From an uncultured Candidatus Saccharibacteria bacterium (GTDB lineage Bacteria > Patescibacteriota > Doudnabacteria > UBA920): 44,059 nt of DNA. Location: NCBI GenBank assembly GCA_964650345.1, contig CAZYSI010000002.1, positions 1-44,059 of the forward strand. Reading direction: 5' to 3'. Below, one piece after another: positions 8,770 through 38,148 of this stretch. Both the position numbers and the translations under genes were made by a program. Every line of letters starts with the position of its first letter. Position 1 is the first letter of the stretch. The notes under the pieces are model-generated. The model was not told the DNA's origin. It was given only the letters and a program-made list of their open reading frames with translations, and searched no databases.

Positions 8770-9324
8770 ATGAACCGTTTACAAGAACAATATAATAAGC
8801 AGATCTTGCCGCAGCTCAAAGAGCAGTTTGGTTACAAGAACGCAATGGAAGTACCTAAAGTCCAAAAGGTTATCCTTAATGTTGGCATTGGCCGTTTCTT
8901 AAAAGACTCTAAGTTTGTAGAATCAATTAAGCGCGATATGGCTGCTATTGCAGGACAGGCTCCGGTGGAAACTAAGGCTCGGAAATCTATTGCTGGATTC
9001 AAGATTCGCGAACAGCAAGTAGTGGGTCTGGCAGTAACTCTTCGCGGTCAACGCATGTACGAATTTCTCGATAAGCTGGTTTCCGTAGCTCTTCCTCGTG
9101 TGAAAGATTTCCGGGGTATTTCTCCAAAAGGATTTGATGGTCGCGGCAACTACCACCTAGGACTGAAAGAGCATATTGTATTCCCAGAAATCTCTAATGA
9201 CGCGCTTGAACATATTTTCGGACTACAGGTATCTATAGTAACGAATGCTGGTAAAGATGAGCCAGCCAGAGCGCTCCTAAGTGCAATGAATTTTCCCTTT
9301 ATTAAACCCGCAGAAACTAAGTAA
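8770..9324 (+). CDS. rplE: 50S ribosomal protein L5
   Basis: NRL.E.Y.....P.L.E.F.YKN.M.VPK..K...N.G.G... and FDGRGNY..G..E...FPEI. Confidence 0.97.
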
Positions 9325-9329
9325 CTAAC

Positions 9330-9524
9330 ATGGCAAAAAAATCTCTAATCGCAAAAGCAAATAGAAGTTTGACCAAGCCGAAATTCTCGTCTCGAGTAAT
9401 CCGGCGTTGTTGGAAGTGCGGCCGCAAGGCTGGCTTCATGAGAGATTTTGCACTATGTCGCATTTGCTTCCGGGAATTGGCCAGCCGTGGCGAAATTCCA
9501 GGAATAGTAAAGGCTTCTTGGTAG
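9330..9524 (+). CDS. rpsN: 30S ribosomal protein S14, short zinc-binding type Z
   Basis: 64 aa with CWKCGR...CRIC (CxxC...CxxC) and a terminal KASW. Confidence 0.95.
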
Positions 9525-9539
9525 ATTAACTAAACCGAT

Positions 9540-9932
9540 ATGTACACAGACCCAATTTCAGACATGCTAACTCGTATCCGTAATGCTCTTGCTGCTCGTA
9601 AGGGTGAGTTAGTCATGCCTTATTCTAAATTCAAGCACGGTTTAGCTAATGTGCTCTTGCAAGAAGGATTTATTAGCGGTGTTAACGAACTTCCGGGACG
9701 GGTGAAGACTTTACAGTTGAACTTGAAGTATGACCAAGCTGGTAGCCCAGTAATTACCGGTATTAAGCGTGTTTCCACACCAGGACAGCGCATTTACTTG
9801 CCAGTAACAAAGATTCCTCGTACTAATGGTGGTTTTGGCGTGACAGTAGTGTCGACTTCACGCGGTCTTTTAACCGATAAGCAAGCCCGCAAAGACCGGG
9901 TTGGTGGAGAAGTAGTTTGCCAAATTTGGTAA
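9540..9932 (+). CDS. rpsH: 30S ribosomal protein S8
   Basis: DPISDMLTRIRNA.......V..P.SK......VL..EGFI and a C-terminal GGEV.C..W. Confidence 0.97.
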   Translation: MYTDPISDMLTRIRNALAARKGELVMPYSKFKHGLANVLLQEGFISGVNELPGRVKTLQLNLKYDQAGSPVITGIKRVSTPGQRIYLPVTKIPRTNGGFGVTVVSTSRGLLTDKQARKDRVGGEVVCQIW

Positions 9933-13790: not shown

Positions 13791-16346
13791 GTGCCTTTTG
13801 AATTAAGCACCATTGCCATTGCCGGAATAGTCCTAGCCGTTCTAATCGCGGTGTTTTTCGCATTTCTAGCATATTACTTGCATCGCCATTGGTATTACAC
13901 CAAAGTTATCCTGCCGCGCACTAAGAACTGGGTGTTTATGGAAATACAAATGCCGAAAGAGAGCTCTGAAGATAAAAATTCGCAGCTGCAAAATAACGAA
14001 GAGGGCAAGAAGAATCTCATTGCTGTAGCTGAGCAATTATTTACCTCACTTTCGGAAATTAGTCATGAGAATTGGTGGTTTCAGCCGAAAGAGTATATTA
14101 GTTTTGAAATTGCTTGCACTGACAAGAAGATTTCATTTTACATAAACTGTCCTCAGCATTTACAGCAACTCATTGAAAAACAATTGCAGGCTCAGTATCC
14201 GCATTCATTTGTAGAAATTGTTCGGGCATATAATCCTTTCCAAAAAGGTGGACAGGTGGTTGCAACGGAATTACAAACCACGCGTCCATATGTGTTCCCG
14301 ATTCGTACCTATAAAACCATGGAGACTGATCCTTTGAACTCTTTGACTAACGCAATGTCGAAATTAGGCGAAGGGGAAGGGGCTGCTATTCAATTCATAC
14401 TCTCACCTGCAGGGCATCATTGGCAACACAAACCACGCCATATGGCTTTGGAAATTCAGCAGGGAAAGAATCCGGATAAAGTAGTTAAAGGGGTTGGCGC
14501 GCGCGTGGCTTCGGAAGCGTTTTCAACTTTGAAAGACAGCACTCTGGGGAAAAATAATCCTTCCGCAGCAGGACAGCATCATCAAGATTTGTCGGGAATG
14601 TACAGCCCGATTAATCTGACTCCAATGCAGCAGGAGATGGTGAAGCGGTTTGAAGAGAAAGCCAGTCGACCAGGATTTAAAACTAATATCCGGATTGTTT
14701 GTTCATCTGTTAATCCTGGTGCAGCGGCAGTGAATTTGAATAATATTGTTTCATCTTTTTTGCAATACAACATGCCTCCATTTAATGGCTTTCGAATTAA
14801 AAAGCGAGCTCAGGCCTCGATCGTTAAAGATTTTATTTTCCGCATTTACCGCCGCTATGGCAGCAAAGCCATTTTAAATACGGAAGAACTAGCTAGTTTA
14901 TGGCATTTACCAACGCCATTTTTAGAAACTCCGAATATTAAGTGGCTGCAGTCTAAAAAGGCGCCGCCGCCAGTGAATTTGTCAAAAGAGGGAATTTTAA
15001 TTGGCCGAAATATTTACCGCGGGGTGGAAACGCAAATCTTTGCAGATCGAGATGATCGCCGCCGCCACATGTACATTCTGGGACGAACTGGTGTGGGTAA
15101 AACCGAGATCATGAAGTATATGTCTGTGCAGGATATTAAGAACGGCGAAGGATTATGCATTATCGACCCGCATGGTGATTTCATTGAGGATGTGTTACCA
15201 CACATTCCAAAGGAGCGTGCAGAAGATGTAATTTTGTTTGAGCCGTTCGATACTGAGCGTCCAATGGGTTTGAACATGCTCGAAGTTCGCCAAGAAGGGG
15301 AGAAAGATTTTGCGGTACAGGAAATGATCTCGATTTTTTACAAACTGGTGACTGACCCTGCAATGCTAGGGCCAATGTTTGAACACAACATGCGTAACGC
15401 CATGCTGACTTTAATGGCCGACGAAACTCATCCTGGAACCTTAGTAGAAATTCCACGTATTTTTACAGACGTTGAGTTCCAAAAATACAAGATTAGTAAA
15501 TTACAAGATCCAGTGGTGCGAGCGTTTTGGGAAAAAGAAATGGCTAAGACCAGTGACTTTCACAAGTCGGAAATGCTGGGTTACTTGGTTTCAAAAGTTG
15601 GGCGGTTCGTAGAAAATTCCATGATGCGAAATATTGTTGGGCAGCCCAAGAGCGCCTTTAATTTCCGCGATGTCATGGACAATGGCAAAATTTTGTTGGT
15701 GAATTTAGCCAAAGGTAAAGTTGGTGAAATGAATGCCAAGCTGATCGGCTTAATTTTAGTCAGTAAGATTCAAATGGCTGCTATGTCACGCGCGGATATT
15801 CCCGAAGAAGATCGTAAAGACTTTTATTTGTACGTGGATGAATTTCAAAACTTTATTACCGACGCGTTTTCAAGTATTTTGTCTGAGGCGCGAAAGTACC
15901 GCTTGAACTTAATTATTGGCCATCAGTTCTTAGGGCAATTATCGCAAGGAGCGGGTGTTCAAGGCGCAGGTAGCAATGATCTACGTGATGCTGTATTTGG
16001 TAATGCCGGCAGCATGGTCACATTCAGGATTGGCGTGGAAGATGCCGAAATTATGGCCAAGGAGTACGCTCCAGTGTTTAATGACTTCGATTTACTAAAT
16101 GTCGACCGGTTTAATGCTTTTGTAAAGTTAATGATTAACGGCACTGCCAGTAAACCATTTAACATGGCAACATATCCGTTGGAAAAAGCCACCGAAGAAC
16201 AGCGCGCCACTGCCGCAGCCATTCGTCAGTTATCTCGTTTGAAATTTGGTCGTCCACGCGCTGAAGTTGAAGCTGAAATTCTCGAAGCTAGTCGTGTGGC
16301 TGACATGATGGCAGCCGGTGAGGCTGGAATAGAAAAAACCGTTTAG
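13791..16346 (+). CDS. Membrane-anchored FtsK/HerA/VirD4(TraD)-superfamily P-loop ATPase, type IV coupling-protein-like (851 aa)
   Basis: GTG start. N-terminal TM helix IAIAGIVLAVLIAVFFAFLAYYL. Walker A GRTGVGKT (nt 15081-15104), then CIIDPHGDF. Walker B YLYVDEFQNF (Asp-Glu at 15837-15842). C-terminal GNAGSMVTFR pattern as in coupling proteins. Confidence 0.75.
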   Translation: MPFELSTIAIAGIVLAVLIAVFFAFLAYYLHRHWYYTKVILPRTKNWVFMEIQMPKESSEDKNSQLQNNEEGKKNLIAVAEQLFTSLSEISHENWWFQPKEYISFEIACTDKKISFYINCPQHLQQLIEKQLQAQYPHSFVEIVRAYNPFQKGGQVVATELQTTRPYVFPIRTYKTMETDPLNSLTNAMSKLGEGEGAAIQFILSPAGHHWQHKPRHMALEIQQGKNPDKVVKGVGARVASEAFSTLKDSTLGKNNPSAAGQHHQDLSGMYSPINLTPMQQEMVKRFEEKASRPGFKTNIRIVCSSVNPGAAAVNLNNIVSSFLQYNMPPFNGFRIKKRAQASIVKDFIFRIYRRYGSKAILNTEELASLWHLPTPFLETPNIKWLQSKKAPPPVNLSKEGILIGRNIYRGVETQIFADRDDRRRHMYILGRTGVGKTEIMKYMSVQDIKNGEGLCIIDPHGDFIEDVLPHIPKERAEDVILFEPFDTERPMGLNMLEVRQEGEKDFAVQEMISIFYKLVTDPAMLGPMFEHNMRNAMLTLMADETHPGTLVEIPRIFTDVEFQKYKISKLQDPVVRAFWEKEMAKTSDFHKSEMLGYLVSKVGRFVENSMMRNIVGQPKSAFNFRDVMDNGKILLVNLAKGKVGEMNAKLIGLILVSKIQMAAMSRADIPEEDRKDFYLYVDEFQNFITDAFSSILSEARKYRLNLIIGHQFLGQLSQGAGVQGAGSNDLRDAVFGNAGSMVTFRIGVEDAEIMAKEYAPVFNDFDLLNVDRFNAFVKLMINGTASKPFNMATYPLEKATEEQRATAAAIRQLSRLKFGRPRAEVEAEILEASRVADMMAAGEAGIEKTV

Positions 16347-17764: not shown

Positions 17765-18061
17765 ATGAATAAATTTGATATTGATAATTTTATAGAGTTG
17801 GTAGAAGCGAATAAGTTGGATGATGCTAGTCAGAAACTTGGTAATTATTTTGATAAACTTACACCAGCGGAAAAAGGAAAGGTCTATGTAGATATTGCAG
17901 GTATTTATATGCGCATGATTGCTGAAAATAACATGCGTTTGGTAGAATTTTTAGATGCTCAATTGGCTCGGTTGAGAGAAATAGATGAAATTGAGTCTAA
18001 CGCTAGTAATCAGATTAAAGATAGATTTGATTTAGCAGATCTTAGAAAAAAGCTGCAATAG
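17765..18061 (+). CDS. Hypothetical small helical protein (98 aa)
   Basis: Starts 2 nt after the previous stop. No recognised motif. Confidence 0.55.
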   Translation: MNKFDIDNFIELVEANKLDDASQKLGNYFDKLTPAEKGKVYVDIAGIYMRMIAENNMRLVEFLDAQLARLREIDEIESNASNQIKDRFDLADLRKKLQ

Positions 18062-18084
18062 TAAGAGTTTGATAGTTTACTTTT

Positions 18085-18112
18085 AAAATCCCCTTTAAAT
18101 AAAAGGGATTTT
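18085..18112 (+). terminator. Weak terminator-like hairpin
   Basis: aaaatccc (18085-18092) / gggatttt (18105-18112), 12-nt loop. The stem is AT-rich, so this is a low-confidence call. Confidence 0.4.
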
Positions 18113-18136
18113 AAATATTCTTAAAAATACTAAACC

Positions 18137-18165
18137 TTGACAAAACGTCTTAAATTTGCTATAAT
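18137..18165 (+). promoter_or_regulatory. Consensus sigma70 promoter of the lectin cassette
   Basis: TTGACA (18137-18142), 17 nt, TATAAT (18160-18165), with TGC immediately upstream of the -10. Confidence 0.75.
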
Positions 18166-18299
18166 TTGCTAAATTTGAACAATAGTAGCTGCTGACTTAT
18201 TTTTCCGGAAATGTTGGTTAAAAGCCTGTATTTCCGGCAAAGTAATCCTTTGCCTGTACATTCCAAATTAAATACTTTCTTACTAAGGAGCATACTGTA

Positions 18300-19610
18300 A
18301 TGGCAACATCACGAACCGACGTTGAAGCTGTTGTTGAGTTCTTTGATCCCAACAACAAAACCAAGTCAGATAAGAGCGGCAGAAATTACCCGCAGTATGG
18401 GTTTCTGTTCGTAATTGATGACGGGACTAGGATACCGATTCAAGACGAGGGTCTTGACGCGGCTATTAGTCCACAGCTCCGTAGAGATAATATCTTTACG
18501 GTGGATATTGTTGCTGATCCTACTAATCCCACAAGGGACAAAGTAAAAGCAACCAACTTTCGGTTTGTTAGAACCGAAGCCGGCGCTGCAGACAGCGCTA
18601 AGGCCAAATTCAAACCTGCCAAATCTGGTGCTCCTACACCTTCCTCAACAAAGGCCGACAAGGCCGATCCCAAACAAAATACTGAAGAGCTTTGGCGGCT
18701 CGAGGTAATGGGTGAACCAGTCGGAGGCGATAATAGCGGCGAATGGACAATATCCGTGGAGTTGGATAAAAACAACTACCCGGTACCAGACGCCAAGATC
18801 AAATTCCGTGCTGGATCGACAAGTTTCGTTGGGACGACCGGTCCCGAAGGCTGCATCGAACAGACCATAACTGTTTCAGATAATACGTATGGGCGGGTCG
18901 TTTACGACTCATCCCTGAGTATATCTGGAATACCGATTGCTGGACCAGATAAAGCTGTTGCCCCTAAGCGTAAGCTTACGGGTTGGCACTGGTTTAACAA
19001 TTTTTTGTATGGTTTTTGGACTGCTGTGCTTGTGCTTTCGATCATTCTGTGGGTACGGGCGGGTTATGTGGAGCTCACAACGCCTTACTCGCAGACCAAA
19101 TCGGTCAGCACAACACAGCAGGACAACGGCCGACCTAAGTTTTCTTGGGACAAGACTCAGCAACCTGCTCCAGAAACGGAGCAGGCAGCAGTAAGTTGGG
19201 GTGGTTACATTTGGAGCTGGACTCCAATGGGATCATTCCTCATTTTGCTACTCTGGTTCTTCCTTTGGATTATTTTGTTTCCGATTTGTTTCGGAGCGGA
19301 GATCTGGGAAGCTTTGCTGAATCAGTACCAAAAAAGCAAAGGCGCTATCGAGGCTTGGCGTCATACGCGTGAACCATTCCAGTATACCGTCGAGGTTATC
19401 CGGAATGGCGGCAAAATCGCTCAGAAACCGGTGTATATGTACAACGGCGAAAAAGTGAATAAGCCCGAGACGCGCTCGGAAGCGATGAGTTCGCTGAAGA
19501 ATATGAAATTCGGCGATATCAAAGAATTTATCAAGTTCGATTTGTTGTCGGATCTCGGCGTAATGCTATTCGACCGCTTCGTGCTTGGCAGACTATTTGG
19601 AGGAAGGTAA
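18300..19610 (+). CDS. Hypothetical two-TM membrane protein with N-terminal soluble domains (436 aa)
   Basis: AAGGAG lies 7-8 nt before the ATG. Soluble N-terminal ~230 aa with a Lys/Ala/Pro linker. TM helices FLYGFWTAVLVLSIILWV and FLILLLWFFLWIILFPICF. Confidence 0.7.
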   Translation: MATSRTDVEAVVEFFDPNNKTKSDKSGRNYPQYGFLFVIDDGTRIPIQDEGLDAAISPQLRRDNIFTVDIVADPTNPTRDKVKATNFRFVRTEAGAADSAKAKFKPAKSGAPTPSSTKADKADPKQNTEELWRLEVMGEPVGGDNSGEWTISVELDKNNYPVPDAKIKFRAGSTSFVGTTGPEGCIEQTITVSDNTYGRVVYDSSLSISGIPIAGPDKAVAPKRKLTGWHWFNNFLYGFWTAVLVLSIILWVRAGYVELTTPYSQTKSVSTTQQDNGRPKFSWDKTQQPAPETEQAAVSWGGYIWSWTPMGSFLILLLWFFLWIILFPICFGAEIWEALLNQYQKSKGAIEAWRHTREPFQYTVEVIRNGGKIAQKPVYMYNGEKVNKPETRSEAMSSLKNMKFGDIKEFIKFDLLSDLGVMLFDRFVLGRLFGGR

Positions 19611-19611
19611 C

Positions 19612-20661
19612 ATGGATACGTGGAAAAAAGTTGGAATCGCAGTGGTACTTCTGCTGCTGGTCGTTGTTGGTATTTTGATCTTCAAGGCCTTGGTCATGAA
19701 GTATTTCGATCTGACGCTGTCGTTGGTCTTTGTTTTGTCGGCATTCGTGCTGGCAGCGATCGCGCTAGCGTTCATTCACTTTTTTGCTCCTGAGAGCTCT
19801 CGCAGCTTTCTGACGAGTGGAGTTGTCGTGATGCTGGTTCTGTTCTGCGGGTGGTCAATCTATGCAGGCACTAGTCCAGTAGCGGCTAAAACCACGAAAA
19901 AAGGGATCGCGGCTCACTTTCTTAACTTCGCCAAAAATTTGTTGCCGGACAATTCAGCTAATGATGAGGTTACTCATCAGGCTGATATGGACTGCGACGA
20001 AGCAACTGCGGAGTTTCGCTATAATGTCGAGCAGAAATTGCTGGACAATTATAAGCAGGATGGCGATGTTGATAAGTACCTCCGTGCCCGAGCAGAATTG
20101 CAGGAGAAGTTGATGAAGAACACTGCTTTATGCAGTTCGGCATCACGTTCTTCGGTTACTCCTTCCTCGACGCCCGCGCCGGCGAGTACTCCCGCCTCAA
20201 CAACTTCTTCAACTAGCATGGTAGCAACTACGGGAACAACCAAAGTTTTCGTGGATGCTACTCGGTACAATGGAGTCGGGTCGGTTCAATTGATTTCTGG
20301 ACGAAAGTTCGAAATTAAAGGGACAGGCACGGCGGTGTGGAAAAATATTCCCGTAGGAAATCCGACAAAGTATGAATCTTGCGGTCCGGAAGGCACTTCG
20401 CCAACTGCATCGGTCAAGATGACCCGTGAGGAGTACTTCTCCAATATCGGGGACTACTTATGTCCTACGGCTCTCAAGGGTGCGCTCATTGCCAAAATTG
20501 GCAACGGGGCGTGGTTCCCGGTCGGAAAAAACTTTCAGGGGGTAGCCCAGAATGATGGGGTGCTGACTTTAGCGGTCAACGATCTTGATCCGCAAAAGCA
20601 GCCCACGTCGAACTGGGCAGACAATGGTGGTGGGTTCTCGGTGGCGGTCATCGTACACTGA
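19612..20661 (+). CDS. Membrane-anchored protein with C-terminal PA-IL (LecA)-like lectin domain
   Basis: I prefer the ATG at 19612 (GGAGGAAGG taa c ATG; SD at 19599-19603) over the 19585 ATG in the ORF track. Three N-terminal TM helices, then a Ser/Thr/Pro linker (SSVTPSSTPAPASTPASTTSSTS). The C-terminus reads CGPEG...GALIAKIGNG...GVLTLAVND...DNGGGFSVAVIV, resembling P. aeruginosa LecA as I recall it. Confidence 0.7.
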   Translation: MDTWKKVGIAVVLLLLVVVGILIFKALVMKYFDLTLSLVFVLSAFVLAAIALAFIHFFAPESSRSFLTSGVVVMLVLFCGWSIYAGTSPVAAKTTKKGIAAHFLNFAKNLLPDNSANDEVTHQADMDCDEATAEFRYNVEQKLLDNYKQDGDVDKYLRARAELQEKLMKNTALCSSASRSSVTPSSTPAPASTPASTTSSTSMVATTGTTKVFVDATRYNGVGSVQLISGRKFEIKGTGTAVWKNIPVGNPTKYESCGPEGTSPTASVKMTREEYFSNIGDYLCPTALKGALIAKIGNGAWFPVGKNFQGVAQNDGVLTLAVNDLDPQKQPTSNWADNGGGFSVAVIVH

Positions 20662-20675
20662 AGCCTATTTCACTG

Positions 20676-20716
20676 AAAGGGTTAGCGGATATAATTCGCT
20701 GACCCTTTTTATTTTG
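20676..20716 (+). terminator. Rho-independent terminator closing the lectin cassette
   Basis: aaagggttagcg-gatataatt-cgctgacccttt (one G-U pair) followed by ttattttg. Confidence 0.8.
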
Positions 20717-20741
20717 TCTAAGCACTAATTGCTTATATAAT
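20714..20741 (+). promoter_or_regulatory. Promoter candidate for a leaderless mRNA
   Basis: TTGTCT (20714-20719), 16 nt, TATAAT (20736-20741). The ATG at 20749 is only 7 nt downstream. Confidence 0.5.
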
Positions 20742-20748
20742 ATAGATT

Positions 20749-21687
20749 ATGTTGTTATCTTTTTTGAAGAAAAATTTTTATCTACATGAACTGATAATTA
20801 TCCCAGCTTTTATTGGGAGTGTAGGATTGAGTTGGTATTTTAGTCAAAATTACAATTGGTTGCCTCCATTTGCAGAATGGGTAATGCTAATTGCTTTGAT
20901 GTTTTTTATTGGTTTTGTATGTGTAAAAATTGCAACTGTTGGAATTAAGTTATTTTTTAAGTCTGAGATTGCTCAAAACAAATTTAATTATATAAAAACT
21001 TTCCGATTTATTAGAATTTTTTTTGCTATTTTTGTGTTGTTAATAATATATGAGAATTTACAACTCATTATTCCATCAATCGCTCCAACGCTTCAGGACC
21101 CTGCCTTGTTGTATTATGATGAACTGTTATTTGGTTTTTATCCGACTGATCCGTGGATTATGAACCTTGCCAATGTGTATCTCACAGAAATAATGAACGC
21201 AGTATACCTAACTTTCTATTTCTATATCCCTATTATTGCTCTGTTACTGTATGTTCAAAATTCGATTTCCGAAGCTTTGCGTTTTACGTTAGTAATGGTC
21301 ATTGCATTTCTAATCGCATTTGGACTTTATATATTAGTTCCCGGTATAGGACCCTTGTACTATCTTAAAGGTCAATTTCCTGTTGAATTAGACGGAACAT
21401 TGGTGAATTTAGTGCAGGGTATATTGCAGACCAGTGGAATTCCTCGCAATGTTTTTCCCAGCTTACATGTCGCTGGTAGTGCTATTCCGCTATACTTCTT
21501 TTACAAGAACTCTAAACCGTTGTTTATAGTTTGCTTGCCGGTCATTATTTTGTTGTGGCTATCGACCGTTTATTTGAGGTTGCATTACATTATTGATGTC
21601 TTTGCGGGGTGGTTTTTAGCAATTGTTTGCATAGCGCTTGGAACCTATTTATTTACGAAATGGAATGAAAAAACATTGGTTGATTAG
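20749..21687 (+). CDS. PAP2_C-type (sphingomyelin/IPC-synthase-like) lipid phosphotransferase family membrane protein
   Basis: Polytopic membrane protein with FPSLHVAGS and RLHYIIDVFAGW. These match the SGH / HYxxDVxxG signature of the PAP2 superfamily. Confidence 0.7.
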   Translation: MLLSFLKKNFYLHELIIIPAFIGSVGLSWYFSQNYNWLPPFAEWVMLIALMFFIGFVCVKIATVGIKLFFKSEIAQNKFNYIKTFRFIRIFFAIFVLLIIYENLQLIIPSIAPTLQDPALLYYDELLFGFYPTDPWIMNLANVYLTEIMNAVYLTFYFYIPIIALLLYVQNSISEALRFTLVMVIAFLIAFGLYILVPGIGPLYYLKGQFPVELDGTLVNLVQGILQTSGIPRNVFPSLHVAGSAIPLYFFYKNSKPLFIVCLPVIILLWLSTVYLRLHYIIDVFAGWFLAIVCIALGTYLFTKWNEKTLVD

Positions 21688-23185
21688 TTTGTGTTTAGTG
21701 GTTGCCATAATGGCCACTCTACAAATCCCTAACCGAACTCGGTTAGGGGATCCAGACGGGTTTTATCATGCCAAGGCTTCGCAGCTGCTGGAACAAGGAA
21801 ATTTATCAGATACTTTTCCGTACTTAGCATATACCACGTGGAAAGATGGTTATGCTGACCAACACTACCTTTATCATGCACTGCTGATTCCGTTTAATAA
21901 CGTGGATTCTTTGTTCCTGTCCATAATAATATTCGCTAGTCTAGCAGCCCTTGCCTTTTATTTGCTGTTTTCAGTATTGATGGTGAAAAGCAAGCTCTGG
22001 TGGCTACTAATTTTGATGCTGGGTTCAACTGACTTTTTGTTTCGTATTAATTTGGTTAAAGCCAACACGCTATCTTTAGCTTCGTTAGCAGCAATCATAT
22101 ATTTGCTGTGGAAGTGGCATGAAAAAAACAATTATTGGGTTGCTGCGGCAATTGGCGTTGTTAGTTTTTTGTTTGTATGGATTTACGGTGGGTTTGTGTT
22201 TGTCCCTGTAGTATTAGCTTTATATGTACTTTCAGTACTAATAACAGAGCGAAAATTTGATTACCTACCAGGACTTGCCAGTGCACTCGGCATAGTCATT
22301 GGATTACTCGTACATCCACATAACTCACATTTACTAGTTTTACTTTATGATCAGATTTTCCGGGCTGGGCTTGGTGCTGGAGCAGTTCCTGTGGGTAATG
22401 AATGGCTCCCTTTTAATATAGATTGGTTTTTAACTAGCAACATTCCATTGTTGTTGGTCTGGGTTTTAAGTTTAGCCGCAGTAATGGCTAAGATTTGGCA
22501 CAAACAAATTAGTTGGCTGGAGTTGTGGCTGCAGCTCATTGCTGTAGCTTTGTTGCTGTTAACCTTGCGTCATCGTCGGTTCATTGAATACTTTACGCCG
22601 TTTGCAGTATTATCAGCCAGTGTAGTTCTGACACCGTATTTGGCTAAATTAAATTGGCAACAAATTAAACTGAGCATAAAACAACACTGGCAATTAGGTT
22701 TTTCCGCTGGGTTTGTAGTTTTCCTAGTCGCTTCAGCATTTCTATACAACTTCCAGCACGTGTATGATTACTTGCAGGGTGGGGAAGAGACTCATCGGTT
22801 TGAAGAAGTTGCCCAGCAAATTTATACTCACAGTCAACCAGGTGACATTGTAATTAATACTCAGTGGGATCAGTTTCCGCAATTGTTCTATTGGAATAGT
22901 AAAAGTTATTACCCAATTGGGTTAGACCCGACGTTTATGTACATCTATAATGCAGATTTGTACTGGGATCTGCGCAAGATTGCCGATGATAATGAGAGCG
23001 ACTGGGAGTCTGTTGAATATTTGCATTCAATCGCCAGCAAAACTTTGAAAGGCAAGTTTTTATTCTTAGATGCAAATCGTAATATTAATATTCATAAGTA
23101 CATTCAAGAGCACGATACAGAGCAAAAATACTTCCAATTGATCTATGATTTAGACAACGTGGTAGCTTACCGTATTTTGCCGTAA
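21665..23185 (+). CDS. GT-C fold (ArnT/PMT-like) membrane glycosyltransferase candidate
   Basis: About 12 TM helices. The first extracytoplasmic loop reads GDPDGFYHAKAS (acidic DxD-like motif). There is a large C-terminal soluble domain. I prefer the ATG at 21665 (MKKHWLISL); the track start at 21638 is also possible. The gene overlaps the PAP2 gene. Confidence 0.55.
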   Translation: MKKHWLISLCLVVAIMATLQIPNRTRLGDPDGFYHAKASQLLEQGNLSDTFPYLAYTTWKDGYADQHYLYHALLIPFNNVDSLFLSIIIFASLAALAFYLLFSVLMVKSKLWWLLILMLGSTDFLFRINLVKANTLSLASLAAIIYLLWKWHEKNNYWVAAAIGVVSFLFVWIYGGFVFVPVVLALYVLSVLITERKFDYLPGLASALGIVIGLLVHPHNSHLLVLLYDQIFRAGLGAGAVPVGNEWLPFNIDWFLTSNIPLLLVWVLSLAAVMAKIWHKQISWLELWLQLIAVALLLLTLRHRRFIEYFTPFAVLSASVVLTPYLAKLNWQQIKLSIKQHWQLGFSAGFVVFLVASAFLYNFQHVYDYLQGGEETHRFEEVAQQIYTHSQPGDIVINTQWDQFPQLFYWNSKSYYPIGLDPTFMYIYNADLYWDLRKIADDNESDWESVEYLHSIASKTLKGKFLFLDANRNINIHKYIQEHDTEQKYFQLIYDLDNVVAYRILP

Positions 23186-23221: not shown

Positions 23222-26200
23222 ATGTTGTTTCGCATAGGCGAGAGAAGTGGTTCTGATTTTGAAACAAAGCTAGATCCGGAGCGAAAACCGAGTGAAAATA
23301 TTAATGAGCTTGAGCAAACTAAAGCTGCTGAGGTTGATTTTGAAATAGGCAAAGAAGCAAAAGGTAAAGAAGGTATTAATGAACGTTTAGAAGAAGAATT
23401 GGGTGTCGTTGCAGAAAAAATTATTTCAAATAACGATGACTTAGAAAATTTAATAGAGAGTAATTTTTCAGACCGGTCACCAGAGGAAAAACAAAAAATT
23501 CTAGAACAACTGCAATCCGCAGCTGGCAAAGAAGAATTTAAGGGTCATGTTAAGGAGTTTTTGACTAAGTCCTTACCAAAAGATTTTACTGTAGGCGCTT
23601 TGGCTGGTTTCGCAGCTCCGCTAATAGCCAAGATAGCAGTTAAAAATTCAGCACGGGCTTTACTTGCTAGTAAAACATTTGGAGTGAGTGTGGCTGCTGG
23701 CGCGATCGCTAACGCTGTTGTTGAACCATTGAGACATTGGATTCGCAATAAAGAAAAAATTGTTGCAAAAGATATTGAATGGCAATTAGCAGCCGCTCAG
23801 TCGTCGGAGCAGCAAGCCGCTATTATCGCTCAGACCCAGAAAAGTTTGGAGGCAGGTCGGTTTCGTAAAGAGGACGAAGCTGGTGTTCGAGCACTATTGC
23901 AAGAACAGCTTGTAAAGGTACATTTAGAAACAAATAAAGAAGGTTTGGAAGGCAAGGATAAGGTTTTACAAATACTGGAAATTTCAAAATCTACCCGACG
24001 TGCTTTGTTTACGAAAGAGGGCAGGGCAGTGCGAAAGCTAATTAATAGCGTTGAGCTGCTTACTGAAAAAAATAAGGTTGGTTATAAGGAGCTAGCTTCA
24101 GCTTCACTTAAAGGCGCTCTTACTGGCGCTGTGGGGGGCGCTGTGGGGGGCGCACTTCATTATTTCCTTGTCGATGCCGGGTACGGCCAAAAAGCCGTCG
24201 ATGTTATCGGGGAGAAATTAAAGGCTGGTTGGTCTGTTTTGCGAAATATGAAAGGCAGTGGTGGCCCTGCGTTGGCATTTATTAACCCAACCTTAGCAAC
24301 TACTCTTTACGGGGAAGTAAGTAACTACGCTCCAGATGTTCCGGAGAAAGAAATTCCCGACGCTGTTAAGCAGGTCATTGCTAACAAAGCTGAGCAGTCT
24401 TTTACAACAGCACCACAAGGATTGTCGGAGATAAAGGACAAACTAGCAGAACAGGCGTTTTATTCTGATTTAGAGCAGGGTAATGGGGGAACGCATTTGG
24501 CTCGAAAAGCATTACATGATTACAGGGTTAATCTAATTAAATCCGGCGATCCTGATGCTGCAAATCTCTCTACTGAACAATTAATCTTCGCAGAAAATTG
24601 GTTTATTAAGCATAAGTTAGATAAATATGTTGAAGAAGGTGCGGATCATGCCTTTAAGCTAGGGGAGGAAGTAAAACCCTTTGATGGCGCAGATTTGAGA
24701 GAGGCAATTGAGGAAGCAAAAAAACTGAATGAGGAACAGCTAAAGAATTTGCACAAATATGTAGACAAGCTTTCTGAAAAAACCATTCACGAAATGCACG
24801 ATTTACAGAATTTTGAAAATGCAGCGAATGACTATACTAAAAACATTCAATCGCCGCAGCCAGATCAAAGTAATGTCGCACCGGGCACTAACCCTGCAAT
24901 AAGTCCAACACCTGAAAACTATGACAATTATCATCCAGACCCGTTAACCGATGAGGAGCGTAAAGCTATAAATGATTCGCAAGATCGTTTTCAAGAAGAT
25001 CAAGCTACTGGTGGTTCTGAGATAGATAAGCAGATTGAACAGTATTATGAGGACAACAAAGACACTGGTCTGAATGAATCAGAAAAAAATATTGAAAGCA
25101 TTAATTCTAAATTAATTGCAATTGCTAAACTAAATCTCATGGGAGGCATCTTGCTTGGTGGGGCTGCAGCAGGGTTTTATATGTTCAAGAAGTGGCAAAA
25201 AGAACGCCCTACTCCTGAGCAAAGTAGAGAGGCGATTGAACAGCTGCTACGCCAAAGAGAACTAGAGGTTGAGCTGGGAGAAGGCGTGACCGATAAAGAC
25301 ATACATAAGCAGTACAATAAATTAATTCGGGCCATAGAACAAGATTACGCTTATGGTGGTTTAGCAAATCTTGCCGGTAAAAAAATTGTATTAGAAAAAG
25401 CGCATAGTGCTAAGGAGCCCTGGGTAGATCATACTGACCCCGAGGTAATTCATTTACCTGTTTCTGTAAAACTTGATAAGTTAGAAAGGTTTATTAATCA
25501 GCTAGATGATGATGCAATCGATCAAGCTAAAGAGTTTTCAGAACGAAAATTATATGAAGCGGGTGATATTATGTTAGATTTGGAGGATGAGTTTCAAATA
25601 AGAATTAGGTTCATTAACAGAGGTCCGAATGGAGTAAGTTCACAACAATTAATTGACAACCTCGATCGATTCAGAAACGCTTTGCGTGACTTACCAGCAG
25701 AGGATTTGCACGGGACGAACTTCGTTCTAACTTATGCCTTAAATGAGCTCGATAAGTCAAGCGGAGATATCTACATAGATGTGGTAAGGCAAACCGATGA
25801 AGAACTATCAAAAGAACTAAGGCAGTTACTTGGGTTAGCCGAAAATATTGAATCTGGAAGTGGTGCTCCAATTTTGGCTGAGCCAGTTTTTGAAGACGAA
25901 CCAGAAGATGTTGATGAGCCTGACTCGTCTGGTATTGTAGAACCAGAAATTAATCCGGTCGAACAAGCTAGACAGGAGATTCAATCTGAATTCAATGAAA
26001 TAGAACGAAAGCATGGTATGAATATAGCTTTGGCTAATGATAAAACCGCAGAATTATTAATGCGCGACCGCAATTTAATGTTTAATTTGCAAGACGGCAT
26101 TGAAGATGCGAGTCGATTCTATCCAGGGATGTTTTATCCTTTCGAAGGTTTTAAAATAGTTCTTGATGATAAATGGGCTTTAGAAAAAGGGGTGCGCCAT

Positions 26201-27895
26201 ATTAACATAAAACAAGGTACACCAAAGCAAATTGCAGATTTTTTAGTTGACCCAGTGAGAGCATTGCGACGTAATAATGAGCCTGCAGCAAGTGGGGTTG
26301 ATAGCATTGAAGTGCGCAATATCGAAGGTAATGAATCAAATCGATTCTTCGAAGAGAATGAAGTTCAGATTCATGGCTCAGCCTATGAATTTAGTCCAGG
26401 TTCTTTTGCTAAACTTGAGGTTAAAGATTTAGTTGACGCAGGCTTAGAACCAAAGCATACAGTTGTTGTAGGAAGTACTGAGTTGAGAGTTTCTCAGCCT
26501 TATAATTTAGACAACGGTCGTCTGGCAGCGATGGTCTATGTGAAGCAAGGCGATGTTTATGTTCCTCGTTCCTATTACAAAAGTAATTCAGCTGTATCTT
26601 GGCGTTATTTGCCTACATATAGTAGAGAGTATGACCCTGAAACAGATCGTTACAATCGTCATTACGATAAAGGCTATGACGAGGATAGTTTAGATGCTAC
26701 TTGGGAAGTGCAAATGGCTTTAACTAAGATCGCAGCAGAACCGAATAATATTATCAATACTCCAAAGGATCCAGAATTCTATATGTTTGGGACATGTTGG
26801 GAGAAAGACAAAGATAATACTTATCAATTTTCGGTTGACGAGTTAGGTGAAACCTATAATGGTCAGTTTAAAGTACCTGAAAGTGATCGGCAGAAGCACG
26901 AAAATGTAGGCGGGTTTTTGGAATTTACTGGTGTGAATAAACTCGAGCCAGAAAAGGTTGGTTTTGCTAATCACGCTTTTAATCCGAACTTTGCTGAAGG
27001 TCCAATAGCGGAATGGCCTGACTATAGCCACATTTATGGTGCGATCACTAATAGGGTTTTTCAGAGTAAAAATAAGCAGCTTACTTATGTGATTCATGAA
27101 AGCGCAGAGGGAAAGGTGTGGATGAACATTCAGACTAATACTGAATTAACTCCAGTTGGTGTGAGGAAGAAGTGGTTTGATGGCGGAGACTTAACCTCAC
27201 CTGCGTATGAATACAAATATCCTAAGATTTCGAATAGTGGTGAATCTTATGTCTACGATCAAACTGGAGGTTATGGTGATGATTCCGATAGAAGAGGTAG
27301 TTATGTTGACATGTTTAAAAACTACAATAGCAAAATTCCTATTATTAAAGAGTATCGGGAATGGAGAAATAATCCACCCGCATCGCCACAGCCAGAGTTA
27401 GTTATTGAACCAGAGCCGGTTAAGCCTAAGCAAGCAGCTTCGTCTCCTCGAGATAGAACCCTGAAGCCAACTCCAGAAAGCCTTCGTAGCTACCCAATAG
27501 GTATTGATTCTGCGCCAGCAACTGAAGCCTGGGATCTCCTTCACTCGGAATCTAAAGAGAATCCATTTCGATCAAATATTGATGATGTTGTTCCACAGCT
27601 TAGCCAACTGGAAAATTGGGTTAATGAGCAAAGAGACTTCAGTGTAATTTACCCTGAATCTCCAATTGTAAAAGCATTTGAAATGCTGAACACGCTATTC
27701 GATTTTTATTCTGATGACGACCGAGCTCGTTCAACTGTTTCCTGGTTACGAGATACTATTAGACAGTTAAACCGCGTAAGTATGAGGCGAGCAGAAGAGC
27801 AAGCCAATGCTAATTTGGGTCGCGATAATTCAGAAGACCCAATTCCTAAAGTAAAGACCAATCGCTTAGAACGAAAACATGGTAAGAAGGAATAG
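23222..27895 (+). CDS. Giant multi-domain membrane protein (1557 aa), function unknown
   Basis: Uninterrupted 4.67-kb ORF. Hydrophobic Gly/Ala-rich segments: FTVGALAGFAAPLIAKIAV, GALTGAVGGAVGGALHYFLV, LMGGILLGGAAAGFYMF. Acidic coiled regions and an aromatic-rich C-terminal region of ~350 aa. No family motif recognised. Confidence 0.8.
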   Translation: MLFRIGERSGSDFETKLDPERKPSENINELEQTKAAEVDFEIGKEAKGKEGINERLEEELGVVAEKIISNNDDLENLIESNFSDRSPEEKQKILEQLQSAAGKEEFKGHVKEFLTKSLPKDFTVGALAGFAAPLIAKIAVKNSARALLASKTFGVSVAAGAIANAVVEPLRHWIRNKEKIVAKDIEWQLAAAQSSEQQAAIIAQTQKSLEAGRFRKEDEAGVRALLQEQLVKVHLETNKEGLEGKDKVLQILEISKSTRRALFTKEGRAVRKLINSVELLTEKNKVGYKELASASLKGALTGAVGGAVGGALHYFLVDAGYGQKAVDVIGEKLKAGWSVLRNMKGSGGPALAFINPTLATTLYGEVSNYAPDVPEKEIPDAVKQVIANKAEQSFTTAPQGLSEIKDKLAEQAFYSDLEQGNGGTHLARKALHDYRVNLIKSGDPDAANLSTEQLIFAENWFIKHKLDKYVEEGADHAFKLGEEVKPFDGADLREAIEEAKKLNEEQLKNLHKYVDKLSEKTIHEMHDLQNFENAANDYTKNIQSPQPDQSNVAPGTNPAISPTPENYDNYHPDPLTDEERKAINDSQDRFQEDQATGGSEIDKQIEQYYEDNKDTGLNESEKNIESINSKLIAIAKLNLMGGILLGGAAAGFYMFKKWQKERPTPEQSREAIEQLLRQRELEVELGEGVTDKDIHKQYNKLIRAIEQDYAYGGLANLAGKKIVLEKAHSAKEPWVDHTDPEVIHLPVSVKLDKLERFINQLDDDAIDQAKEFSERKLYEAGDIMLDLEDEFQIRIRFINRGPNGVSSQQLIDNLDRFRNALRDLPAEDLHGTNFVLTYALNELDKSSGDIYIDVVRQTDEELSKELRQLLGLAENIESGSGAPILAEPVFEDEPEDVDEPDSSGIVEPEINPVEQARQEIQSEFNEIERKHGMNIALANDKTAELLMRDRNLMFNLQDGIEDASRFYPGMFYPFEGFKIVLDDKWALEKGVRHINIKQGTPKQIADFLVDPVRALRRNNEPAASGVDSIEVRNIEGNESNRFFEENEVQIHGSAYEFSPGSFAKLEVKDLVDAGLEPKHTVVVGSTELRVSQPYNLDNGRLAAMVYVKQGDVYVPRSYYKSNSAVSWRYLPTYSREYDPETDRYNRHYDKGYDEDSLDATWEVQMALTKIAAEPNNIINTPKDPEFYMFGTCWEKDKDNTYQFSVDELGETYNGQFKVPESDRQKHENVGGFLEFTGVNKLEPEKVGFANHAFNPNFAEGPIAEWPDYSHIYGAITNRVFQSKNKQLTYVIHESAEGKVWMNIQTNTELTPVGVRKKWFDGGDLTSPAYEYKYPKISNSGESYVYDQTGGYGDDSDRRGSYVDMFKNYNSKIPIIKEYREWRNNPPASPQPELVIEPEPVKPKQAASSPRDRTLKPTPESLRSYPIGIDSAPATEAWDLLHSESKENPFRSNIDDVVPQLSQLENWVNEQRDFSVIYPESPIVKAFEMLNTLFDFYSDDDRARSTVSWLRDTIRQLNRVSMRRAEEQANANLGRDNSEDPIPKVKTNRLERKHGKKE

Positions 27896-37146: not shown

Positions 37147-38148
37147 ATGTCAGAATTTAGACAAAATCCAATTACTAAACAGTGGGTACTCATCGCCCCG
37201 ACCCGTTCTAAACGCCCGGAAGACTTTAAAACTTATAGCGTGATGGCTGGTTTGCCGGAGCTGGATTCAAAGTGTGTGTTTTGCCCAGGTAATGAAAATT
37301 TGAATCCGGATCTGTGTGATGATGTTTGTCGGATTCCTAACGACAATAATTGGCAGCTGCGTGTTATTCCTAATAAGTACCACGCCTTGGATCATAGCCC
37401 AGTGCTGTCTCAGCGCGAGTTTTACCAATCACGTGCAGGCTATGGTGACCATGAAGTAATCGTTACTAGAAAACATAACGAGCCAGTAGCGATGCAGTCG
37501 GCTCAGCTCATTGCTTTAACTTTGAAGAATTTCAAAGAACGAATTGAAATTTTAAGTCGTGATGAAAAAAATGCCTATGTTCAGGTTTTTCATAACCACG
37601 GGCGCGATGCTGGTGCATCGCTGGTACATCCGCATTACCAGATTCTCACTTCACCAATGGTGCCGCCACATATTCATTCTGAAATTTCTGGGGCGTACCA
37701 TTATTATCAAAATCATGGTATATGTATTTACTGCGATATCATGGAAGAAGAAGCAAGGTTGGGAGAGCGTCTAGTGTATGAAGATGAACATTTTATGGTA
37801 GTTTCGGCTTATGCTTCACGCAAGCCGTTTGAGACTTGGATTTTACCTAAGCGACATACGGCACGGTATGAAGATATTTCTGAAGTCGAAATAACCCATC
37901 TGTCTCATGTCTTAAAACACGTCTTAGGGGCTTTGTATACTAAGTTATCTGATCCACCGCTTAATTTTTACATCCATACAATGCCAGTTAAGCGTGAGCG
38001 TACTACGATGCATGAAGAGGGGAGTTACCATTGGCACTTAACTATTTTCCCTCGCTTAACAATTTGGGCTGGGTTTGAGTATGCAACAGGTATTCCAGTT
38101 AATCCAGTAACTCCGGAAGAAACTGCCAAGTTTTTAAGAGGAGATTAA
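37147..38148 (+). CDS. galT: Galactose-1-phosphate uridylyltransferase-like HIT-family nucleotidyltransferase
   Basis: R.NP.T..WV.IAP.R..RP, CVFCPGNE, VIPNKYHAL, and active-site HPHYQI (HxHxQ). Confidence 0.7.
   Translation: MSEFRQNPITKQWVLIAPTRSKRPEDFKTYSVMAGLPELDSKCVFCPGNENLNPDLCDDVCRIPNDNNWQLRVIPNKYHALDHSPVLSQREFYQSRAGYGDHEVIVTRKHNEPVAMQSAQLIALTLKNFKERIEILSRDEKNAYVQVFHNHGRDAGASLVHPHYQILTSPMVPPHIHSEISGAYHYYQNHGICIYCDIMEEEARLGERLVYEDEHFMVVSAYASRKPFETWILPKRHTARYEDISEVEITHLSHVLKHVLGALYTKLSDPPLNFYIHTMPVKRERTTMHEEGSYHWHLTIFPRLTIWAGFEYATGIPVNPVTPEETAKFLRGD

Follow-up and report, generated by a model that had tools for sequence, protein, structure and literature searches.

We analyzed a 44,059-nucleotide (nt) window, namely positions 1 to 44,059 of contig CAZYSI010000002.1 (assembly GCA_964650345.1, from an uncultured Candidatus Saccharibacteria bacterium), read on the forward strand. 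The window encodes a 349-amino-acid (aa) protein, here called the lectin protein, whose C-terminal 140 residues are a genuine but divergent homolog of PA-IL, the LecA lectin of Pseudomonas aeruginosa. The lectin gene and the unit in which it lies comprise the following features.

18137 to 18165, plus strand: promoter-like TTGACA-17-TATAAT element with an upstream TG, sigma-70-type, matching the consensus at 12/12 positions, ahead of a two-gene unit
18300 to 19610, plus strand: upstream partner gene, an open reading frame (ORF) of 436 aa that ends 1 nt ahead of the lectin ATG
19598 to 19603, plus strand: Shine-Dalgarno sequence GGAGGA of the lectin gene, read from the sequence
19612 to 20661, plus strand: lectin gene, 349 aa plus stop, 99% identical to the metagenomic protein P0001, which has the same start
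20675 to 20709, plus strand: intrinsic terminator at the end of the bicistronic unit, with a 16-bp stem and then a T-rich tail
20714 to 20741, plus strand: second promoter-like site, preceding a PAP2 gene

The ORF call for the lectin gene spans 19585-20661 and opens with a TTG at 19585. We place the true start at the ATG at 19612, on which three observations agree: the Shine-Dalgarno sequence lies 8 nt ahead of it, the upstream gene ends with a TAA 1 nt before it, and the gene call for P0001 is likewise 349 aa long. That the ORF is not a gene at all was ruled out by the flanking ribosome-binding site and terminator and by orthologs in syntenic loci. A small terminator-like hairpin (18091-18107) lies ahead of the two-gene promoter. 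The promoter, the 1-nt gap and the terminator show the lectin gene to be the second gene of a predicted bicistronic unit, co-transcribed with that of an upstream membrane protein. Because a strong terminator and a new promoter lie between them, PAP2 would not be co-transcribed with the lectin gene. The upstream partner has a β-rich N-terminal part, two transmembrane segments near residues 234 and 313, and a conserved C-terminal ...FGGR; we describe it as a mostly cytoplasmic protein translationally coupled to the lectin gene. Searches of Pfam, NCBIfam and PDB sequences found no match for it. Scans of the window for tRNAs and Rfam families found no element, and short minus-strand ORFs beneath the lectin gene are without support.

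A preliminary description of this DNA, made from the sequence alone, had assigned positions 20239-20658, which are exactly the last 140 codons of the gene, to a LecA-like domain by comparing motifs with a quoted LecA sequence. The quoted sequence is 100% identical to PDB entry 1l7l, and the motif matches are real. LecA is the top PDB sequence match (phmmer, E 0.011), and the HMMER alignment pairs query positions 291-353 with LecA residues 55-114. The motifs GAL(I/V)xKIGN, (L/I)xxND and DN/NN-x-G-x-F are common to LecA and the window domain. A match to the Pfam PA-IL profile (PF07828), which had been proposed as a check, is present at 20.0 bits (E 7e-4) for the domain alone and 17.9 bits for the full protein, below the gathering threshold of 22.5 bits. 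Three orthologs (P0002, P0005 and P0009) had no Pfam PA-IL match at E ≤ 0.01.

Relatives of the domain provide a stronger connection. A profile built from seven homologs, in which the 140-aa domain is 57-71% identical, found 224 proteins at E ≤ 1e-3 in a search of 1.84 billion representatives. Pfam PA-IL matched 52 of the 119 relatives scanned, with a best E of 1.3e-15, and no other family was common to the relatives. When a 26-sequence profile was aligned with LecA using hhalign, the match had 93% probability (E 3.5e-7) over 110 columns, covering LecA residues 6-118.

Structural comparison, proposed as a check in the preliminary description, gave the same answer. The domain was modeled with AlphaFold2 from the 26-sequence alignment, with a predicted local distance difference test (pLDDT) score of 71-98 per 10-residue block and ≥90 for most of the domain. 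Foldseek against the PDB placed LecA first (E 1.3e-9, TM-score 0.82-0.85, root-mean-square deviation 2.6-3.0 Å, 26% identity). All 11 significant PDB matches were LecA (1l7l, 4cp9, 2vxj), the domain at the N-terminus of EclA from Enterobacter cloacae (EclA-N; 6ygq) or PllA from Photorhabdus (5odu, 5ofz), with E values of 1.3e-9 to 9e-7 and TM-scores of 0.75-0.85; the twelfth match dropped to E 0.05. EclA-N matched at E 6e-8 and PllA at E of about 6e-7 to 9e-7. An earlier model from seven sequences yielded an identical ranking, and the BFVD viral structure library gave no match at E ≤ 0.001. The jelly-roll β-sandwich of LecA is thus common to all of these proteins. As single-sequence scores are marginal, we base homology on the profile evidence from the relatives and on the agreement of the Foldseek matches. 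Together, the profile, transitive and structural evidence establishes the C-terminal domain as a PA-IL homolog.

The domain stands at the end of a membrane-anchored protein of five parts, four of which are as follows.

19630 to 19869, plus strand: three transmembrane helices at about residues 7-29, 35-58 and 61-86, from hydropathy and AlphaFold2
19993 to 20142, plus strand: antiparallel helical hairpin stalk, residues 128-177, with AlphaFold2 helices at 128-150 and 153-177 (pLDDT about 80)
20143 to 20238, plus strand: flexible linker rich in Ser, Thr and Pro, residues 178-209 (32 aa, 72% Ser/Thr/Pro)
20239 to 20658, plus strand: PA-IL (LecA)-fold β-sandwich, residues 210-349, of a divergent 'GTAVWKN...ECGPxGT...SNI..YxCP' subtype

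The three-helix anchor and the Ser/Thr/Pro stalk had both been proposed in the preliminary description, and both were borne out. Hydropathy peaks of 3.1, 2.8 and 2.0 agree with AlphaFold2 helices at residues 2-30, 35-58 and 61-86 (pLDDT 68-88). The juxtamembrane stretch that follows (residues 87-127), the fifth part, is mostly modeled at pLDDT <50. Cys128 and Cys174 cap opposite ends of the hairpin, and this pair is kept in P0002, P0003 and a 235-aa ortholog from the related genome L009, despite only about 25-45% identity overall. The linker is predicted to be disordered (pLDDT <50 for residues 179-203), and O-glycosylation of this stalk is plausible. An NCBIfam scan of the lectin protein found no match. 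The Pfam family DUF6056 (PF19528) was rejected as an annotation; it scored 22.5 bits against a gathering threshold of 27 bits over the transmembrane region only (residues 11-113) and was taken as hydrophobic-helix similarity. Cortexin and MGC-24 matches were likewise sub-threshold and lay in transmembrane or low-complexity regions.

In LecA, galactose O3 and O4 bridge the Ca2+ ion; Asn107 also touches O2 and O3, Thr104 and Asp100 touch O4, and His50 and Gln53 contact O6 (PMC9321714). The alignments map the Ca2+-site residues of LecA onto the window protein as follows.

20338 to 20340, plus strand: W243, at the position of LecA Y36 (main-chain Ca2+ ligand), from hhalign
D324, at the position of LecA D100, by alignment mapping
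N334, at the position of LecA T104 (main-chain Ca2+ ligand), by alignment mapping
D337, at the position of LecA N107, by alignment mapping
N338, at the position of LecA N108, by alignment mapping
20578 to 20625, plus strand: extended Ca2+-binding loop N323-D324...N334-W-A-D337-N338, from alignments to LecA

The Ca2+-ligand positions singled out for inspection are therefore kept: all five equivalents are invariant at the sequence level in 7 orthologs. Across 26 sequences, W243, N323 and D337 are invariant, and conservation of D324 and N338 is 90% or higher. Where LecA has N107, the window domain has Asp, as do PllA and EclA, and PllA carries the same Asp-Asn pair at the N107-N108 positions. The D...D-N pattern also resembles EclA-N, in which the crystal structure shows Ca2+ held by Asp114, Asp121 and Asn122 together with two main-chain oxygens (PMC11875179). 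From these residues, Ca2+-mediated sugar binding by the lectin domain is likely.

The residues that confer galactose specificity tell a different story. In place of the LecA loop that carries His50 and Gln53, the window domain has a longer insertion of about 12-20 aa that includes a short helix. No His/Gln pair is conserved in this loop across the 26 sequences, and two hhalign runs place His50 differently. EclA-N is similar in this respect, with unconserved galactose-contact residues and an extended loop that opens the site (PMC11875179). Because the His50/Gln53 loop is replaced and not alignable, galactose specificity is not supported, and the word 'galactophilic' in the preliminary description does not hold. 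The specificity loop of PllA, a soluble α-galactoside-specific tetramer, also differs from that of the window domain. A conserved disulfide between Cys257 and Cys284 within the domain was considered and rejected; relatives have lost one Cys or the other independently, and the two do not covary.

We then compared the proteins that carry the domain. The anchors of the orthologs fall into four classes without detectable mutual similarity.

Window protein: three transmembrane helices
P0002 and P0003: three transmembrane helices
P0004 and P0007: six transmembrane helices
P0005, P0006 and P0009: about seven transmembrane helices

The converse arrangement was found in L009 (positions 9217-9924), where the 235-aa protein is orthologous to the anchor, hairpin and start of the linker (E 6e-21) and has no lectin domain. 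Its 448-aa neighbor is an ortholog of the upstream partner (28% identity, E 2e-42). A conserved domain on unalignable anchors, together with an anchor that lacks the domain, therefore indicates that the lectin domain acts as a module that exchangeable membrane stalks carry as cargo.

Among the 150 best metagenomic relatives, 62 have a single N-terminal hydrophobic segment, as for a signal peptide or signal anchor, and about 20 have two or more. Other fusion partners of PA-IL-like domains include M23 peptidase, TIR and kinase domains; attachment to secreted enzymes, the M23 peptidases, is expected of a targeting or binding module. Uncharacterized single-pass relatives from metagenomes, P0012-P0029 (E 1e-33 to 1e-17), share the 'WKN-type' subtype and insertions of the window domain and are anchored N-terminally or secreted. 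They have one N-terminal hydrophobic segment in place of three transmembrane helices, and several add a second PA-IL-like domain. All relatives looked up that carry source names are called 'hypothetical protein'. Exported, anchored or enzyme-fused PA-IL-like domains are common among uncharacterized metagenomic proteins.

In the single-pass anchored proteins P0012, P0014, P0016, P0020 and P0021, a WKN-type domain and a second PA-IL-like domain stand in tandem. The second domain passes the Pfam PA-IL model in P0012 only; the best PA-IL stretch falls on the WKN-type domain in P0016 and P0021, and P0014 has no Pfam PA-IL match.

The preliminary description had called the architecture new. This is correct only against the characterized proteins LecA, PllA and EclA, given how common anchored or fused relatives are in metagenomic sequences. 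LecA is a 121-aa soluble homotetramer without an anchor, whereas the window domain is the C-terminus of a 349-aa protein with three transmembrane helices. A close precedent is EclA, reported in 2024 to be the first case of a LecA domain joined to another one (PMC11875179). Its PA-IL domain is likewise one module of a larger protein. However, EclA is soluble and from a gamma-proteobacterial pathogen, and its partner is a second, fucose-binding lectin domain; the window protein is from a Saccharibacteria epibiont, and its partner is a polytopic anchor with a stalk. Literature searches combining PA-IL, LecA or PF07828 with Saccharibacteria or Patescibacteria, plus Southlakia transposon-sequencing (Tn-seq) supplements, turned up no earlier account of such a protein.

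The window is core chromosome, with genes for EF-Tu, SecY, DnaX, RuvX, GalT, TIM, RpiB, Rpe and transketolase and, upstream of SecY, ORFs judged by their size to be of ribosomal-protein length. To place the lectin gene within it, we compared conservation with the related genomes L001/L003 and L002.

SecY: 85-87% identity to L001/L003 and L002
VirD4/TraD-like ATPase: 82-88% identity to L001/L003 and L002
201-aa protein: 84% identity (L001/L003 only)
Lectin: 58% identity to L001/L003 (domain) and 40% to L002 (residues 88-346)
515-aa membrane protein: 47% identity to L001/L003 and 57% over a partial match in L002
PAP2: 35-45% identity to L001/L003 and L002
Upstream partner: no BLAST hit in L001/L003 or L002

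Compared with these genomes and with L009, L010 and L011, the window has a hypervariable block at 17765-23185, between a conserved gene of about 95 aa and the conserved 515-aa membrane protein, in a chromosome that is otherwise syntenic. The flanks are 82-88% identical, and the block itself ranges from 35-58% identity to unalignable. Three more Saccharibacteria genomes (L009, L010 and L011) keep the frame SecY...95-aa gene-[block]-515-aa homolog...GtrA-DnaX, with 2-6 different genes in the block. The equivalent slot in L010 (6944-8326) encodes a 460-aa protein with six transmembrane helices, an anchor homologous to the P0004/P0007 class and a C-terminus that matches P0021 at 76 bits. In L011 (6370-7977), it encodes a 535-aa protein with seven transmembrane helices and a C-terminus that matches P0044 at 42 bits. 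Both PA-IL-like ends are of the more canonical short-loop type, and a Pfam scan of the two proteins did not detect PA-IL. The hypervariable envelope block thus repeatedly contains PA-IL-like proteins with membrane anchors.

Homologs of the 515-aa polytopic protein (21638-23185) form 67 clusters, and one of them, P0174, carries a fused GT2 glycosyltransferase domain; the protein itself matched nothing in Pfam, NCBIfam or the PDB. Its position, with PAP2 and GtrA nearby, suggests an envelope-glycan function. An NCBIfam scan of nine neighbors gave only far-sub-threshold PAP2-related and TraD/VirD4-like matches. PAP2 was discarded as a synteny marker for loci without a lectin. Its four close orthologs are all on lectin-bearing contigs and its more distant matches lie in unrelated diderm loci; the 515-aa neighbor served instead.

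Variation between close strains is concentrated in the same gene. The window is 99.915% identical over 7,050 bp to L006, the contig of P0001, and all 6 differences fall within 31 bp, in codons 323-333 (20578-20610) of the extended Ca2+ loop. Four are synonymous and two are non-synonymous. With the first site free, the chance of such clustering is about (31/7050)^5, roughly 1e-12, so the clustering is not random. No second copy of 20572-20618 is present in the window at ≤3 mismatches and no repeat covers the stretch, nor was a reverse transcriptase domain found among the window ORFs scanned. A diversity-generating retroelement was rejected, as neither a template repeat nor a reverse transcriptase was found. 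For the same reason, we consider the differences most likely to come from recombination of a short tract with a diverged allele.

Collectively, these data lead us to favor, at a probability of roughly 0.6, the interpretation that the protein serves on the surface of an epibiotic Saccharibacteria cell as a glycan receptor or adhesin that depends on Ca2+, as judged from sequence and predicted structure. The anchor would insert with its N-terminus inside and its C-terminus outside. The hairpin, probably disulfide-stapled, and the linker would hold the lectin domain off the membrane, within or beyond the wall. There the domain would bind a carbohydrate diol through Ca2+, as LecA does. Specificity would be set by the subfamily-specific loops, and the ligand is for that reason probably not a LecA-type α-galactoside. 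The most likely ligands would be envelope glycans of the host bacterium, with the protein acting as an adhesin or host-recognition receptor; the adhesin role toward a partner cell, already raised in the preliminary description, is plausible. Function would reside in the domain, which is conserved across unalignable anchors and reused on secreted enzymes.

Several observations weigh against this interpretation. The lectin domain misses the Pfam threshold, and the match covers only positions 55-118 of the 121 in the profile. Six extra residues (DPQKQP-type) stand between D324 and N334, and the loop that holds the galactose-specific residues of LecA cannot be aligned consistently. As EclA-N shows, an intact Ca2+ site in a PA-IL domain need not come with an identified carbohydrate ligand; EclA-N keeps the site and is without a known sugar ligand (PMC11875179). 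The stalk and linker together may not extend beyond the wall, in which case binding to the cell's own polymers would be favored. Lastly, the window protein's own count of Lys and Arg residues, with 3 on its N-terminal side against 6 on the C-terminal one, runs contrary to an outside location.

One alternative is that the ligand of the domain is a wall or envelope glycopolymer of the cell itself; the protein would then organize or tether the envelope, or sense its condition, and would not recognize a host. The gene lies near envelope-glycan genes (the PAP2 lipid phosphatase, the 515-aa protein with its P0174 fusion, and GtrA), the hairpin and 32-aa linker might end within a Gram-positive-type wall, and relatives fuse the domain to peptidoglycan peptidases of the M23 family. 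However, the strong terminator and new promoter part the lectin gene from PAP2, and L009 keeps the anchor without the domain. The hypervariable block and the strain differences in the ligand loop also fit an outward, diversifying interaction better than housekeeping. We therefore regard binding of the cell's own polymer as unlikely.

Alternatively, the PA-IL fold might serve a purpose other than sugar binding, such as protein-protein contact or structural Ca2+, for example in a membrane signaling complex with the operon partner. The replaced specificity loop, the lengthened Ca2+ loop, the precedent of EclA-N and the translational coupling to a largely cytoplasmic, two-transmembrane partner would all be compatible with a non-lectin role. 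Such a role seems quite improbable to us, since all five positions of the Ca2+ site are kept throughout the subfamily, the ion in LecA exists to bridge the sugar (PMC9321714), and every characterized member of the fold is a lectin domain.

A receptor on the cell surface requires the domain to face outward, as the preliminary description had assumed. We gauged topology by positive-inside counts of Lys and Arg in the loops of ten related anchors, and the lectin domain is on the Lys/Arg-poor side in 8 of the 10. P0010 is nearly balanced. For the window protein itself, the count of 3 versus 6 points the other way, with four of the lysines in the first 25 residues past the third helix, and would place the C-terminal domain in the cytoplasm, like the bulk of LecA in Pseudomonas. 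Against this reversed topology, the full-length orthologs with the same architecture, P0002 and P0003, count 4 versus 2 and 4 versus 1, favoring outside, as do 6 of 7 other anchors. The Ser/Thr/Pro-rich linker, the Cys pair conserved at the hairpin ends and the signal-peptide-like N-termini of many relatives are also in favor of an outside location. We conclude that the lectin domain is very probably extracytoplasmic and that a cytoplasmic domain is very unlikely; the call for the window protein rests mainly on its relatives.

Finally, the marginal single-sequence scores (Pfam 20 bits against 22.5, PDB phmmer E 0.011) might have pointed to a chance or compositional resemblance to LecA, or to an ORF that is not a gene, a notion we count as refuted given the strong profile, transitive and structural evidence, the syntenic orthologs, and the ribosome-binding site and terminator.

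A role in host recognition would suit the biology of the group. To our knowledge, all cultivated Saccharibacteria live attached to host bacteria. For host binding, recent work has proposed glycan recognition by lectins that, like their targets, are yet to be identified (PMC11623550). In Nanosynbacter lyticus TM7x, the minor pilins PilX1 and PilX2 are lectin-like and have been proposed to carry out glycan-based host recognition, the same job as proposed here (PMC11623550). Their folds are unrelated (L-type and PLL-type lectin-like), and it is type IV pili, not a membrane anchor, that carry them. PilX1 and PilX2 have genetic support, whereas the window protein is known here from its sequence and predicted structure. 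The present gene family is a concrete candidate for such a lectin, combining a well-understood sugar-binding scaffold in which the predicted Ca2+-site residues are kept, new specificity loops and a fast-evolving envelope locus.

Studies of the LecA family have dealt almost exclusively with soluble virulence lectins from a few Gammaproteobacteria. Our analysis extends the family to membrane-anchored forms in the candidate phyla radiation and exposes a divergent PA-IL subtype that is mostly missed by Pfam's model. A broader proposal, which we regard as speculative and doubtful in its full form, is that polytopic membrane proteins with PA-IL-like ends serve as receptors for host glycans and thereby determine host range in this lineage of Saccharibacteria. 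The hypervariable block would swap anchors and lectin subtypes, short recombination tracts would diversify the Ca2+/ligand loop, and the coupled, mostly cytoplasmic upstream protein would relay or stabilize binding.

Other genes of the window are noted here for completeness. The GalT (galactose-1-phosphate uridylyltransferase) gene at 37147-38148 lies in the conserved downstream frame; genomes that have the lectin and genomes that lack it both conserve this gene, which gives no reason to connect the two. A 1,557-aa ORF at 23222-27895 has two hydrophobic segments and no family match. At the equivalent position, L001, L009, L010 and L011 have no counterpart, and the ORF appears to be a strain-specific insertion in the same variable region. 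Two genes past SecY, positions 13791-16346 encode an 851-aa ATPase, 82-88% identical to its counterparts in related genomes, with TrwB/TraD/VirD4-like and DUF87 (HerA-type) Pfam matches. A published Saccharibacteria type IV secretion system was reported without a recognizable coupling protein (PMC10633639). For the 851-aa ATPase, DUF8128 was recorded in the syntenic orthologs of L001, L002, L009, L010 and L011.

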